Below are positions 6,429-41,947 of a stretch of 64,000 nt of DNA, piece by piece. A model generated the notes under the pieces. It was given only the letters and a program-made list of their open reading frames with translations. It was not told the DNA's origin and ran no database searches. Source of the stretch: an uncultured Bacillales bacterium (GTDB lineage Bacteria; Bacillota_I; Bacilli_A; RF39; UBA660); assembly GCA_948433085.1 (NCBI GenBank), contig CAOJDP010000003.1, forward strand, positions 5,787-69,786. Direction: 5' to 3'. The translations under genes were made by a program, and so were the position numbers. How positions within the stretch are numbered: the stretch's first letter is position 1; every line of letters starts with the position of its first letter.

Positions 6429-9248
6429 ATGGATAAAATTATAGTAAAGGGAGCAAGAGAAAATAATTTAAAAAATATTTCCATTGAACTTCCTAAAAAT
6501 AAATTAATCGTTATGACAGGTGTATCAGGAAGCGGTAAAAGTAGTTTAGCATTTGATACTATATATGCAGAAGGGCAGCGAAGATATGTTGAAAGTCTAA
6601 GTGCTTATGCAAGACAATTTTTAGGTGGAAGTGAAAAACCAGATGTAGATAGTATTGAGGGATTATCGCCATCTATCAGTATTGATCAAAAAACGACCAA
6701 TAAAAATCCCCGTAGTACAGTTGGAACAGTAACAGAAATTTATGATTATTTTAGATTGCTATATGCAAGAATAGGAATTCCTTATTGCCCTGTCCATCAT
6801 AGACCAATCACTAGCCAGAGCATTGAAGAAATGGTTAATCAAATTATGAATTTAGAAGTGGGTACTAAAATTAGAGTTTTAAGTCCAATTGTACATGGAG
6901 AAAAAGGAACTCATAAAGATACTTTAGAACGTCTCAAAAAAGACGGTTATGTGCGTATTCGAATTGACAATGAAGAATATGATTTAAATGATGCCATTGA
7001 ACTTGAAAAAAATAAAAAACATAATCTTGCAGTTATTATCGATCGTTTGATTATGAAAGATGAAATCAGGAGTCGTTTATATGAATCAATCGAAATTGCC
7101 TCTAAACTTTCCAAAGGAAAAGTTGTCATTGATGTCATTGGTGGAGAAGAAATTGTTATGAGTGAATCTTACGCCTGCCCAGATTGTGACTTTTCATTAC
7201 CTGAGCTAGAGCCTAGAATGTTTTCATTCAATGCACCTTATGGAGCTTGTTCTGATTGTAAAGGATTAGGAATTAAATATAAGTTAGATGAAGATTTGAT
7301 CATACCAGATAAAAATATAAGTATTCATCAAGGTGCAATTAAAGCAATTAATATTGATGATACTTATAATATTACTTATACAGAATTAAACACTGTTTGT
7401 GATTTTTATCATATTGATATGGATTGTCCCATTAAAGAATTGAAACGAGAAGCATTGGATATTATTTTATATGGTTCTAAAGATATTTTAGAATTTCATT
7501 ACACATCAAAAACAGGAAATACAAGAAAAACAAAAAACTATTATGAAGGGATTATTACGAATTTAGAACGACGCTATATTGAAACAAAAAGTGCATGGAG
7601 TAGAGAATGGATAGAACAATATATGACAGAATCAGTATGTCCAACTTGTAAGGGTGCAAGATTAGATGCTTCTGTATTATCTGTTTTGGTTGGAGGCAAA
7701 AATATTTATGAAATGACACTTATGAGTATTGGCGATTTATATAAGTTTTTTCAAAATTTAAAATTAAGTAAAGAACAAACAGAAATTTCTAATCTAATTG
7801 TGAAAGAAATTAATTCTCGATTACAATTTTTAACTAATGTTGGACTTTCATATTTAACATTAGCGAGAAATGCAGGAACATTATCAGGAGGAGAAGCACA
7901 GCGAATTCGTTTGGCTACACAAATTGGTTCTCGTTTAACAGGTGTATTATATGTTTTAGATGAACCTAGTATTGGTTTACATCAAAGGGATAATCAAAGA
8001 TTGATTCATTCCCTACTCGAAATGAGGGATTTAGGAAATACTTTAATTGTTGTAGAACATGATACCGATACAATGTTAGCATGTGATTATTTAGTAGATA
8101 TTGGCCCTGGAGCAGGTTTGCATGGAGGACAAGTTATGGCAGAAGGTACTCCAGAAGAAGTGATGAAAAATCCAAATAGTTTAACAGGCAAATATTTATC
8201 AGGTAAAGAAGAAATAGAAATTCCTCTCAAGAGAAGAAAAGGCAATAAAAAGTTTTTAGAAGTAAAAGGCGCAACAGAAAATAATTTAAAAAACATTAAT
8301 GTTAAAATTCCATTAGGGACACTTACTTGTGTAACAGGAGTATCTGGAAGTGGGAAATCTACATTAGTGAATGAAATTTTATATAAAGTGGTTTCTAATA
8401 ATTTATATCGTGTGAAAGAAAAACCAGGCGCACATAAAGCAGTAAAAGGATTAGAACATATTGATAAAGTGATTGATATTTCGCAAACTCCAATTGGAAG
8501 AACTCCAAGAAGTAATCCTGCAACTTATACGGGTGTATTTGATGAAATTAGAGATGTATTTACAGAAACCAAAGAAGCCAAATTAAGAGGGTATGACAAG
8601 AGTAGGTTTTCATTTAATGTCAAAGGAGGACGTTGTGAAGCTTGCTGGGGAGATGGCGTAAAAAAAATTGAAATGCACTTTTTACCAGATGTTTATGTTC
8701 CCTGCGAAGTTTGTGGTGGAACAAGATACAATAAGGAAACTTTGGAGATTAAATACAAAGGGAAAAACATTTATGATGTATTAGAAATGCGGGTAGAAGA
8801 AGCACTAGATTTTTTTGAAAATTTTCCTAAAATCAAAAGTAAATTACAAATGCTATCTGATGTAGGTTTGTCTTATATTAAACTCGGCCAAGGGTCTCCA
8901 ACATTGTCAGGAGGAGAAGCAGGTAGAGTAAAGCTTGCCAAAGAGTTGCAGAAAAAGCCAACAGGAAAGAGTTTATTTATTTTAGATGAACCAACAACAG
9001 GGCTCCATAGTGATGATATAAAAAAATTGCTTGTGATTTTAAATCGTATTGTTGATAATGGAGACACAGTACTAGTTATTGAACATAATTTAGATGTTAT
9101 TAAGGTAGCAGATTATATTATTGATTTAGGTCCTGAAGGTGGAGATGGAGGCGGTACTATAATAGCGACTGGAACTCCAGAAGAAGTATCTAATGTAGAG
9201 TCTAGTTATACAGGTCAGTTTTTAAAGCAATTATTGGATAAGAAATAA
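6429..9248 (+). CDS. uvrA: Excinuclease ABC subunit A
   Basis: 939 aa. Two ABC ATPase modules (GVSGSGKSSLAFDT; GVSGSGKSTLVNE), LSGGEAQR/LSGGEAGR signatures, and the zinc-finger cysteines CPDCDF / CSDC and CEAC / CEVC. Confidence 0.97.
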   Translation: MDKIIVKGARENNLKNISIELPKNKLIVMTGVSGSGKSSLAFDTIYAEGQRRYVESLSAYARQFLGGSEKPDVDSIEGLSPSISIDQKTTNKNPRSTVGTVTEIYDYFRLLYARIGIPYCPVHHRPITSQSIEEMVNQIMNLEVGTKIRVLSPIVHGEKGTHKDTLERLKKDGYVRIRIDNEEYDLNDAIELEKNKKHNLAVIIDRLIMKDEIRSRLYESIEIASKLSKGKVVIDVIGGEEIVMSESYACPDCDFSLPELEPRMFSFNAPYGACSDCKGLGIKYKLDEDLIIPDKNISIHQGAIKAINIDDTYNITYTELNTVCDFYHIDMDCPIKELKREALDIILYGSKDILEFHYTSKTGNTRKTKNYYEGIITNLERRYIETKSAWSREWIEQYMTESVCPTCKGARLDASVLSVLVGGKNIYEMTLMSIGDLYKFFQNLKLSKEQTEISNLIVKEINSRLQFLTNVGLSYLTLARNAGTLSGGEAQRIRLATQIGSRLTGVLYVLDEPSIGLHQRDNQRLIHSLLEMRDLGNTLIVVEHDTDTMLACDYLVDIGPGAGLHGGQVMAEGTPEEVMKNPNSLTGKYLSGKEEIEIPLKRRKGNKKFLEVKGATENNLKNINVKIPLGTLTCVTGVSGSGKSTLVNEILYKVVSNNLYRVKEKPGAHKAVKGLEHIDKVIDISQTPIGRTPRSNPATYTGVFDEIRDVFTETKEAKLRGYDKSRFSFNVKGGRCEACWGDGVKKIEMHFLPDVYVPCEVCGGTRYNKETLEIKYKGKNIYDVLEMRVEEALDFFENFPKIKSKLQMLSDVGLSYIKLGQGSPTLSGGEAGRVKLAKELQKKPTGKSLFILDEPTTGLHSDDIKKLLVILNRIVDNGDTVLVIEHNLDVIKVADYIIDLGPEGGDGGGTIIATGTPEEVSNVESSYTGQFLKQLLDKK

Positions 9249-9305
9249 GATGAAAAAAGGAAATCAAGATCTTTTTCACTAAGATGAAGGTGAGGAGGTT
9301 AAGAT

Positions 9306-10154
9306 ATGCCAAAATTTTATAATGGATGTTATGATATCGTTTTTAAGACAGTAATTTGTGATGAAACAAATCCTCATATGTTAATCCAGTTTTTAGAGCC
9401 AATTTTAAAGGAGAAAATAGAAAACATAGAATATCTTCAAAATGAATTAAAAATGAACGATGTAAATGAAAGAAGAAAAATTATTGATTTACTAGTAAAA
9501 ACAGAGAATAAATATATACACGTAGAATTAAATCAAAATTACAAAGATTATTTACATATCAGAAATTTTTGCTTTTTTACGAATATCTATTCTAAGAATA
9601 CAAGGAAAGGAAATGCGTATGACTTGGTAAGTGAATACCTTCATATTGATTTATCTTATGGGGTGCATGATGAACAAGAATATAGGGAATATTGTGTAAT
9701 GGATCAAGGTAACCATTTGTATATAAAAAATTTTAAAATTATAGAATACAATATGGACAGGATAACGCAATTTTGGTATACTGCAAATAAAGAAAAGATT
9801 CAAAAATATAAATATTTAATCATGTTAAAAATAGATAGAGATTCTTTAAATGAACTTTCTAAAGGGGATAAATATATGGAAGAGTATAAGAAAAAAGTAG
9901 AGGAGTTAAATGATTCTAATGCTTTTACGAGTTGGATAACACCAGAAGAGGATGCAGAGATGATATTGAATACAGAAAAACATATTTCTTTTGACCAGGG
10001 AAAAGCTGAAGGAAAGGCTGAAGGAATTGAGATCGGGATAAAACAAACGGAAATAGAAACCGCTAAGAAAATGTTAATGGAAGGATTATCAATTGATTTG
10101 ATTATGCGAGTTACCAATTTGACAGAGAAACAAATAGAACAGATGAAGGCATGA
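9306..10154 (+). CDS. Rpn/YhgA-like PD-(D/E)XK nuclease (putative transposase_31 family recombination-promoting nuclease)
   Basis: N-terminal ...YDIVFKTVI...IDLLVKTENKYIHVELNQ (D...ExK core). The C-terminal region has the characteristic GKAEGKAEGIEIGIKQ...AKKMLMEGLSIDLIMRVTNLTEKQIEQM helical module. RBS GAGGAGG upstream. Confidence 0.75.
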   Translation: MPKFYNGCYDIVFKTVICDETNPHMLIQFLEPILKEKIENIEYLQNELKMNDVNERRKIIDLLVKTENKYIHVELNQNYKDYLHIRNFCFFTNIYSKNTRKGNAYDLVSEYLHIDLSYGVHDEQEYREYCVMDQGNHLYIKNFKIIEYNMDRITQFWYTANKEKIQKYKYLIMLKIDRDSLNELSKGDKYMEEYKKKVEELNDSNAFTSWITPEEDAEMILNTEKHISFDQGKAEGKAEGIEIGIKQTEIETAKKMLMEGLSIDLIMRVTNLTEKQIEQMKA

Positions 10155-10357: not shown

Positions 10358-10386
10358 TTGACAAATAATACAATTTATTATACAAT
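10358..10386 (+). promoter_or_regulatory. Sigma-A-like promoter of the glycopolymer locus
   Basis: TTGACA (10358-10363), 17 nt spacer, TACAAT (10381-10386), about 110 nt upstream of the first locus gene. Confidence 0.4.
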
Positions 10387-40703: not shown

Positions 40704-40879
40704 TGTTGTAAAATAAATTTAATATATGTTTTTTAAAATATTACTATTGTTTTTTACAGAAAATAAAAATTGATTAAAAATTTTTATTTTTTTTGTATAT
40801 AATTTCTTTCATATTTTGTAAATGTATGATTTGCATGCAAAAGCAAAGAATGATAAACTTCGCATAGAAGGAGGAAGTG

Positions 40880-41788
40880 ATGATAAAAAATATAAGAATG
40901 GATGTACTTCCAAAAGGTAAAATTATTCCACCAATTTATGATTTTATGTTTACTACTATATTTAATAAGGAAGAAAATATTGTAATATTAGAAAATTTTT
41001 TATCCCTTTATTTAAAAATGCCGTTAGAAAGCATGAAAGGAAATGTGAAGATTCGGTCAAGAAATTTAATGCTTGAAAATAAACATGCTGCAAATAAACA
41101 AGTTGATTTACTATTACAGTTAGAGAATGGTAAAATCAATATAGAAGTATCTACTGGAATATCTAGTGGTATTATTAATCGAAATTTGGTATTTATATGT
41201 AATGCACATTCTACTAGTTATCAGTATGGAGATAGTGATTATACTAAATTAGGCTCTACAATTCAGATTAATTTAGTGTATGATAAGCAACATTTCGTAG
41301 GAAAAAAATTTAGAGAAGAATATTATATGCGTGATGAACAAGGAAATATACTGACTAAAAATTTGAGAATTGATTATGTAAATATAGCAAGATTAAAAGA
41401 ATCGTGTTATACTAATAGTATAGACGAGATAGAAAATTTTTGTAGGGCATTAGTTACAACAAATGAAGAGGAATTTAAAAGGTGGATGGGTGGAATGAAT
41501 ATGGAATGGGAAGCAAAGGAAAAAATGGAAGAGGAGGTATTGAAGTACAGTAATGATCAAGAGGTAATTGCAATTTATTCCAAGTATACGAAAAAGGAGT
41601 TAGAAAGAAATACACTGTTACATGATTGGAAAGAAGAAGTGTTCAAAAATGGAATCGAACAGGGCATTGAGTATAATGTACCCTATAATGTACCCATAAG
41701 TATGGACAATTATAGAAGGGAATCAAAAAAGGAATCCAAAAGGGAATGCGTCAAAAAAGTATTGAAATTGCAAAAAAATGTTGCATGA
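40880..41788 (+). CDS. Second Rpn/YhgA-like PD-(D/E)XK nuclease paralog
   Basis: The core DLLLQLENGKINIEVSTG parallels DLLVKTENKYIHVELNQ of the 9306 gene. It has a Lys/Glu-rich C-terminal tail. GAAGGAGGA RBS. It sits between dgkA and cdd. Confidence 0.65.
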   Translation: MIKNIRMDVLPKGKIIPPIYDFMFTTIFNKEENIVILENFLSLYLKMPLESMKGNVKIRSRNLMLENKHAANKQVDLLLQLENGKINIEVSTGISSGIINRNLVFICNAHSTSYQYGDSDYTKLGSTIQINLVYDKQHFVGKKFREEYYMRDEQGNILTKNLRIDYVNIARLKESCYTNSIDEIENFCRALVTTNEEEFKRWMGGMNMEWEAKEKMEEEVLKYSNDQEVIAIYSKYTKKELERNTLLHDWKEEVFKNGIEQGIEYNVPYNVPISMDNYRRESKKESKRECVKKVLKLQKNVA

Positions 41789-41947
41789 ACATATAGAAAT
41801 ATTTATGATTATGAAGATAACAGGGCTATCAAAGCAAGAAATAGTAGAACTAGAATAAAAAAATTTTTATAAAATATGTGATTAGAGTTATATGCTGAAA
41901 AAATATAGAAAGTGTATTTGTGTTTACATTGTGGGCTATAGAAGCGT

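Follow-up and report, generated by a model that had tools for sequence, protein, structure and literature searches.

Among described systems, the gene examined here comes closest to the Rpn nucleases of Escherichia coli, where the RpnL/RpnS arrangement is known from RpnA to RpnE and the plasmid-encoded RpnP2 (Zhong et al. 2023, PMC10400941; Kingston et al. 2017, PMC5350276). The small protein RpnS is produced from an internal start within the nuclease gene, both in E. coli and from a Clostridioides difficile rpn gene expressed in E. coli, and the E. coli rpn genes additionally contain an internal transcription start site (PMC10400941). The signature of the Rpn proteins described by Zhong et al. 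is a conserved N-terminus followed by a hypervariable tail with four-amino-acid (4-aa) repeats (PMC10400941). Here we describe an rpn gene found in a 64,000-nucleotide (nt) stretch of DNA from an uncultured Bacillales bacterium (contig CAOJDP010000003.1, positions 5,787 to 69,786; hereafter the window). The gene is an intact open reading frame (ORF) on the forward strand (9306-10154, ATG start, 282 aa), and the locus is likely to be a single-gene toxin/antitoxin unit of the Rpn type, a gene within a gene comprising the nuclease RpnL and a nested RpnS. As E. coli rpn genes combine an internal transcription start with an internal translation start, the internal promoter and start predicted here suggest that the same two-signal design is conserved in the family of the gene.

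The locus resembles the E. coli systems in several respects. The active-site pattern (D, D, E-x-(Q/N), R) is shared, as is the division into a conserved N-terminal domain and a variable C-terminal tail, and the three-helix tail superposes on RpnA-S (PDB 7TH0) with a 4-aa repeat tract in its first long helix. A predicted internal promoter and an in-frame internal start would yield a small protein identical to the tail, and the genes are multi-copy, patchy in distribution and prone to decay. In contrast to the E. coli proteins, the protein matches PF12784 and not PF04754, it has Asn instead of Gln two positions after the catalytic Glu (E+2), and its RpnS, known here from sequence alone, is predicted to comprise 92 aa as compared to approximately 49 aa for E. 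coli RpnA-S. The predicted RpnS includes both a helix (residues 189-203) and an invariant PEED...LNTEK segment, and its repeats therefore come late, 41 residues after the Met and not 8-20 as in Zhong et al.

A Gram-positive counterpart is found in the C. difficile Rpn (Zhong et al. 2023), where an internal start is combined with 4-aa repeats that vary from strain to strain. The stand-alone RpnSs, small genes with DUF4351 (PF14261), encode this tail domain on its own, in a small protein with separate expression; unlike in these, the small protein is here nested in the nuclease gene, and the tail had no PF14261 match at E<=10 (Pfam). McrC and other PD-(D/E)XK nucleases have the fold of the N-terminal domain in common with the rpn product (Foldseek E=6e-3, probability 0.99), but the likeness is at the fold level only (13% identity), and they have neither an Rpn tail nor a nested small protein. 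The features of the locus are collected in Table 1.

Table 1 Features of the rpn locus and of the second Rpn-family gene in the window. Positions are those of the window.
Feature	Positions	Strand	Details	Basis
Conserved leader of ~50 nt	9255..9305	+	Invariant AAAAGGAAAT (9255-9264), -10-like TAAGAT (9280-9285), Shine-Dalgarno GTGAGGAGG (9290-9298)	Alignment of copies
rpnL, full-length Rpn-family PD-(D/E)XK nuclease gene	9306..10154	+	282 aa	ORF, PF12784, TIGR01784, identical database protein
Span of predicted active-site codons	9333..9563	+	D10 (9333-9335), D61 (9486-9488), E74 (9525-9527), N76 (9531-9533), R86 (9561-9563)	Alignment
Predicted internal promoter	9754..9782	+	-35 TGGACA (9754-9759), 17-nt spacer, extended -10 TGgTATACT (9774-9782)	Promoter scan, synonymous codons
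Internal Shine-Dalgarno AAAGGGGA	9861..9868	+	Encodes K186-G187-D188	Codon comparison
rpnS, predicted internally initiated small protein (putative antitoxin)	9876..10154	+	92 aa, M191-A282	Codon comparison
C-terminal three-helix domain, HTH_Rpn_C / RpnS fold	9942..10148	+	Residues 213-281	AlphaFold2, Foldseek, PF27070
Hypervariable 4-aa repeat GKAE-GKAE-GIEI-GIKQ	9999..10046	+	Residues 232-247	Tandem Repeats Finder (TRF), homolog comparison
Paralog 2, second Rpn-family gene	40877..41857	+	ORF to 41788; repeat and helix-turn-helix (HTH) tail continuing out of frame to 41857	PF12784, three-frame translation

Predicted internal start and promoter within the rpn gene

The initial annotation, made from the DNA alone, had pointed to an in-frame ATG at 9876 with AAAGGGGA upstream and to a resulting C-terminal peptide of roughly 93 aa. 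The upstream string is indeed present, with 8 nt from its last G to the ATG, and the product is in frame; its actual length is 92 aa. The choice of start was assessed by threading the codons of 25 intact homologs onto the protein alignment (18 from species-representative genomes, 6 from metagenome contigs and the window itself; 40-75% identity). In the column of M191, ATG was found in 12 homologs and GTG in 10, and the remaining three (ATA, GTA, ATT) all have ATG as the very next codon. Where the column encodes Val, GTG is used in 10 of 11 cases, compared to 30 of 278 (10.8%) among the remaining Val codons of these genes (binomial P ~2e-9), with the caveat that some homologs come from the same genomes, so that the counts are not fully independent and represent about 8 independent Val lineages. 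In the corresponding genomes, 2-7% of Val codons are GTG, and at further conserved Val positions of these sequences GTG occurs in 2 of 47 cases, the usual codons being GTA or GTT.

The Shine-Dalgarno (SD) element shows a corresponding pattern. The conserved K-G-D three codons ahead of the start column is written AAA-GGA-GAT, giving AAGGAG or AAGGGG 8 nt upstream, and of 24 homologs, 22 encode Gly187 by GGA or GGG. When every column of the alignment was scanned, conservation of a start codon coincided with an SD ahead of it at column 191 only, and neither of the conserved residues Met150 and Met173 had an SD upstream. The comparative codon analysis thereby singled out the same ATG as the initial annotation, and an internal start at ATG 9876 is strongly supported by these codon patterns.

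Two other candidate starts were considered and rejected. M219 (ATG 9960, after GAAGAGGAT) fits the published rule of 8-20 residues before the repeats, yet its column contains M, L, F, Y, K, R or V, with codons such as TTA, TTT, TAT and AAA, and no conserved SD. M211 is encoded by ATG in many distant homologs, but the column is ATA or ATT in the rpn gene of the window and its close relatives, and an SD is lacking.

A predicted promoter (TGGACA-17-TATACT with TG extension) was located by consensus scan within the ORF, 93 nt ahead of ATG 9876, matching the consensus at 10 of 12 positions. Such a match alone would carry little weight in a sequence of 29% GC, and it was a synonymous-codon anomaly that revealed the element. 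The -35 overlaps the codons of M150-D151, and Asp151 is written GAC in 21 of 24 homologs, as against 69 of the 490 other Asp codons in these genes (14%). An unbiased scan over 20 non-redundant sequences ranked Asp151 as the strongest synonymous-codon outlier of the whole gene (z=-8.9). The -10 is encoded by W157-Y158 and the next codon (TGG-TAT-NNT), which results in TGgTATAAT, TATACT, TATGAT or TACAAT. The 17-nt spacer is constant in the homologs, and in 23 of 25 the start column follows the -10, measured from the Trp157 codon, at a distance of 102 nt. GAC is missing from four sequences, of which L020, L047 and L049 are also without the TGG-TAT element and the fourth (L001) has a perfect extended -10 (TGgTATAAT). 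A perfect extended -10 works without a -35.

Taken together, the comparison shows purifying selection at synonymous sites on the predicted start codon, SD and -35, and both an internal promoter and an internal start, as known from the E. coli systems, are recognizable at the comparative level. Two further synonymous biases were observed in the vicinity. Tyr148 (9747-9749), just upstream of the internal -35, is the second strongest outlier, with TAC over-used (z=-5.1), and Lys164 (9795-9797), approximately 15 nt downstream of the internal -10, is the third, with AAG over-used (z=-4.2). These biases may be part of the promoter or of the start of a short transcript.

Family membership, active site and C-terminal tail

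The rpn product matched PF12784 (PDDEXK_2) over residues 10-204 (E=3.8e-14, 53.4 bits vs the 27.4-bit cutoff), and paralog 2 matched the same family (E=4.4e-15, 56.5 bits vs 27.4 bits). PF04754 (YhgA-like / Transposase_31), which holds E. coli RpnA-E, was matched by neither paralog, as PF12784 alone was returned in a Pfam scan at E<=1. The alignment to TIGR01784 (Rpn family recombination-promoting nuclease/putative transposase) covers positions 3-272 of 273 (E=3.3e-12), with a score of 46.8 bits that lies under the NCBI cutoff of 52.1 bits. Homologs with 27-28% identity carry the name Rpn family in NCBI records. On these similarities the protein belongs to the Rpn superfamily in its broad definition (COG5464, as used by Zhong et al.), in the PDDEXK_2 branch. 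The earlier designation as an Rpn/YhgA-type PD-(D/E)XK nuclease therefore stands for the superfamily and not for the YhgA type.

Across an alignment of 29 homologs (40-75% identity), D10, D61, E74, N76 and R86 were found to be invariant. Kingston et al. mutated D11, D63, E82, Q84 and R94 as the predicted active site of RpnA (PMC5350276), and the E+2 and E+12 spacing of E74/N76/R86 is identical to that of RpnA E82/Q84/R94, with N instead of Q. The initial annotation had named lack of the D/E/K catalytic triad as evidence that would speak against its proposal; in the alignment all five RpnA-type active-site positions are kept. The DLL..ENxK..E core that it had offered as the motif has to be replaced, since this mixes a catalytic Asp with non-catalytic residues, the conserved set being D10, D61, E74-x-N76 and R86. 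The AlphaFold2 model of the full protein has a mean pLDDT (predicted local distance difference test) of 75, and its best PDB matches by Foldseek are PD-(D/E)XK nucleases such as McrC and Bax1. A PDB sequence search with the whole protein and with the tail returned one irrelevant weak match (2o38, E=0.37-1.7).

Among natural variants, P0049 and P0050 (cluster of P0002) carry R86I at the predicted catalytic position, and in P0050 a 14-residue deletion removes the internal start region (KYMEEYTKKVEELN). The loss of the internal start in P0050 fits a relaxed need for an antitoxin once the nuclease is dead, as a single, anecdotal case.

Helices were predicted in the C-terminal part at residues 189-203, 213-258 (the long helix), 263-270 and 274-281 (AlphaFold2). 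The last three of these align with 7TH0, the crystal structure of E. coli RpnA-S (Foldseek probability 0.97, TM-score by target 0.76, root-mean-square deviation 0.7 A), at 32% identity over 37 columns; the likeness was detected by fold and not by PDB sequence search. PF27070 (HTH_Rpn_C) is listed in the precomputed Pfam annotation of an identical database protein (P0001), where it is marked faint in the context listing. A local Pfam scan of the tail alone returned neither DUF4351 nor HTH_Rpn_C, only a weak match to KORA (E~0.06-0.11), and the tail matches the C-terminal end of the E. coli-type model NF007418 (E=0.005). PEED...LNTEK is the most conserved tail element of the family, with E214, E215, D216, N222 and T223 invariant.

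The GKAEGKAEGIE repeat module was, as originally proposed, found within the C-terminal peptide. At the DNA level it includes a 12-nt tandem repeat, GGAAAAGCTGAA x2.3, at 9999-10026 (TRF). The number of 4-aa repeats varies from 0 to approximately 10 among the homologs (e.g. nine GxxE in L020 and ten GxKQ in L021). A difference of exactly 8 aa at the repeats sets the rpn product apart from the closest relative, P0047, which diverges downstream of them and has an N-terminal domain that is ~90% identical, and between paralogs that are >90% identical at the DNA level in single genomes, homology often stops exactly at the start of the repeat. In some homologs, P0030 (390 aa) and P0035, the whole tail module occurs in two to three tandem copies (MTYEEDQ.KILNTEK ... 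EIAINLLKNGM...GLPLKEIEDL), resembling fused extra RpnS units.

Genomic setting, leader and second paralog

The rpn gene starts 57 nt after the stop (9248) of uvrA (6429-9248, 939 aa), and a sugar-transferase ORF lies downstream. Its position at the border of a glycan locus, as described in the initial annotation, was corroborated, with uvrA on one side and a 10-gene glycan cluster on the other. The identical protein P0001 is encoded on 4 contigs from other metagenomes in an unchanged neighbourhood, with the gene order uvrA, rpn, Bac_transf, GT4, Wzy_C, GT1, two GT2, pyruvyl transferase, radical SAM and Polysacc_synt flippase. A near-consensus promoter (TTGACA-17-TACAAT, 11/12) was observed at 10358-10386, in the 300 nt that separate rpn from the first glycan gene. 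With this strong promoter of its own, the polysaccharide cluster is predicted to be transcribed, probably, independently of rpn.

The leader is conserved in an alignment of 10 copies from different genomic sites and moves with the gene, homology between paralogs starting 50-65 nt upstream of the start codon. The promoter scan found no sigma-70-like match and no canonical -35 in the 57 nt between uvrA and rpn or immediately upstream of them, and there is no terminator between the two genes. The statement that each paralog has its own promoter consequently applies to paralog 2, which has TTAAAA-18-TATAAT upstream, whereas the first gene has only the -10-like TAAGAT. The invariant AAAAGGAAAT, found at the equivalent position (-52..-43) in L001-L011 and L025, marks the 5' edge of the DNA repeated with every copy. 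It is unlike a sigma-70 -35, and candidate roles are a cassette boundary, a regulator site or an alternative sigma element.

The presence of two Rpn-family members in the window (9306-10154 and 40877/40880-41788) was confirmed. They share 26% identity over the N-terminal 170 aa (BLASTP, E=7e-13), and paralog 2 keeps D22, D77, E90 and R102 and has Ser in place of Q/N. The tail of paralog 2 (41660-41857) is split over three reading frames by three-frame translation, in the order GIEQGIE, an insert of ~47 nt, KGIKKGIQKGMRQKSIEIAKK in another frame, a run of seven A (41773-41779) and MLHEHIEIFMIMKITGLSKQEIVELE* in the third frame, ending at 41857. The insert contains a tandem 12-nt duplication, TATAATGTACCC x2, at about 41672-41695. 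Out of frame, a canonical tail with repeats and HTH (GIKKGIQKGMRQKSIEIAKK / MLHEHIEIFMIMKITGLSKQEIVELE*) can be read, and this tail type is intact in distant homologs. The tails of the two paralogs do differ, as noted initially, but paralog 2 has the tail type of the first gene with its reading frame disrupted. Paralog 2 is a gene in decay or else, in part, the product of misassembly; misassembly could account for the homopolymer break and is less likely to account for the insert. No stand-alone tail gene was found elsewhere in the window by tblastn.

Proposed function and alternative explanations

In the proposed mechanism, RpnL would be a PD-(D/E)XK DNA endonuclease with the active site D10/D61/E74-x-N76/R86, transcribed at a low level by readthrough from uvrA or from a weak promoter in the conserved 50-nt leader. 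RpnS would be made separately through the internal promoter and the ribosome-binding site upstream of ATG 9876, and would consist of the RpnL tail, i.e. a short helix, the invariant PEED...LNTEK segment, the 4-aa repeat tract and the three-helix RpnA-S-like bundle. By analogy with RpnA/B/C/P2 (PMC10400941), its long helix with the repeats would mediate pairing with the identical RpnL tail, and the nuclease would thereby be kept from cleaving DNA. Which RpnS fits which RpnL would depend on the number of repeats, and this number would change by slippage of the 12-nt DNA repeat, which would account for the steps of 4 aa. Release of the nuclease, e.g. on phage infection, would result in DNA damage. 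Toxin/antitoxin activity and a part in phage defence are extrapolated from E. coli (PMC10400941).

This reading, which we judge probable, has its direct support in the family membership, the conserved catalytic residues, the fold of the tail, the variability of the repeats and the selection at synonymous sites; from these we infer the use of the internal promoter and start, the toxicity of RpnL, its neutralization by RpnS and any role in defence. Several observations speak against it. To the missing PF04754 match, the TIGR01784 score and the limited independence of the codon counts can be added that the predicted RpnS is longer than the published pattern, and that the conservation of the -35 and -10 is partly at the protein level (the elements overlap the conserved residues NMD and WY), leaving synonymous positions alone as independent evidence. 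PADLOC (PADLOC-DB 2.0.0, which may predate Rpn) returned no relevant defence model, only a weak match of the tail to a 'putative invertase' (E=0.004), and the neighbours are housekeeping or glycan genes and not a defence island. The unusual length of the small protein could also be understood differently, if it were a distinct, longer RpnS, starting 41 residues before the repeats and carrying PEED...LNTEK, that inhibits the nuclease through this segment. It might do so e.g. by occupying the DNA or metal site, unlike inhibition by tail-tail dimerization alone, and this would echo the hyperactivating PDDE mutation D165A in RpnA. We regard this variant as unlikely.

Doubt about the nested protein itself takes the form of an ordinary single-product Rpn nuclease, in which conservation of KGD..M, NMD and WY in an AT-rich gene would by itself give rise to the ATG at 9876, the SD-like string and the hexamers resembling a promoter, and no small protein would be made. 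These residues are indeed conserved at the protein level, sigma-70-like matches in the region are not above those in shuffled sequences (7 vs 9.0 +/- 3.0), and GGA is already the commonest Gly codon (46%). Amino-acid conservation leaves unexplained, however, the synonymous choices at Val191 (GTG in 10/11, vs 11%) and Asp151 (GAC in 21/24, vs 14%), the ATG found one codon later where the start column is lost, and the absence of an upstream SD at the conserved Met150 and Met173, and we consider a single product improbable. The Pfam name 'PD-(D/E)XK nuclease family transposase' raises the further idea of a transposase of an insertion-sequence-like mobile element that moves itself round the genome. 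The family is multi-copy, with at least 6 and at least 7 copies per genome in two gut 'uncultured Bacillales' metagenome-assembled genomes (CANSPQ01 and CAMUMB01; L001-L026) and many pseudogenes, 9 of 27 loci examined being frameshifted or truncated; the N-terminal domains of these paralogs are >90% identical and their tails differ, and the compact unit of leader and gene recurs at unrelated sites. On the other hand, the unit is without flanking terminal inverted repeats or target duplications, and homology ends differ between copies, often lying at the repeat tract. Phage and plasmid searches yielded three distant matches only (22-28% identity), with no sign of this sub-family riding known mobile elements. 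A transposase is in our view very unlikely, and Zhong et al. conclude likewise for rpn genes in general (PMC10400941).

The placement of rpn between uvrA and the 10-gene glycan cluster had been seen as fitting a part in locus exchange, on which view the gene would serve mainly to bring about recombination or exchange at the neighbouring polysaccharide locus. Two other copies also lie near surface-glycan genes, one near a flippase and one near LytR_cpsA_psr / UDP-glucose dehydrogenase, and overexpression of E. coli Rpn raises RecA-independent recombination (PMC5350276). The copies seen elsewhere nevertheless have surroundings that are unrelated and for the most part made up of housekeeping genes (one copy is flanked by prmC and polC, one by an Rce1-like gene and a flippase-DinB pair, and one by a YhcG nuclease and LytR_cpsA_psr), and the glycan cluster has its own promoter. 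In a sister species (uvrA 84% identical at the DNA level), a remnant of rpn occupies the same uvrA-adjacent site (L026 3027-3700, CAMUMB010000076.1), on a contig that ends ahead of the downstream genes. It has lost its first ~100 codons, including the catalytic D and E, as well as the GAC and TGG-TAT promoter signals, and has TAA at the E214 codon. A decayed copy at the same site indicates that the uvrA-rpn junction is an old insertion, where the gene decays in place, and not an active junction. A main role in locus exchange is accordingly very unlikely, and the argument from the position of the gene is unsupported.

The preferred reading of the locus, an RpnL nuclease with a nested RpnS, makes this rpn gene an expected instance of the published mechanism, which nothing found here contradicts. 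It is distinguished by its PDDEXK_2 branch, the Asn in place of Gln at E+2 and the greater predicted length of its RpnS, which includes the invariant PEED...LNTEK segment. The RpnL/RpnS gene-within-a-gene architecture would thereby be extended to an uncultured low-GC lineage of gut Bacilli and to the PDDEXK_2 branch of the superfamily. The analysis further suggests that sequence alone, searched for synonymous-codon anomalies (GTG for Val, GAC for Asp), can reveal nested promoters and start sites, which offers annotators a concrete rule to call the hidden small gene in this family and experimenters the exact positions to mutate.

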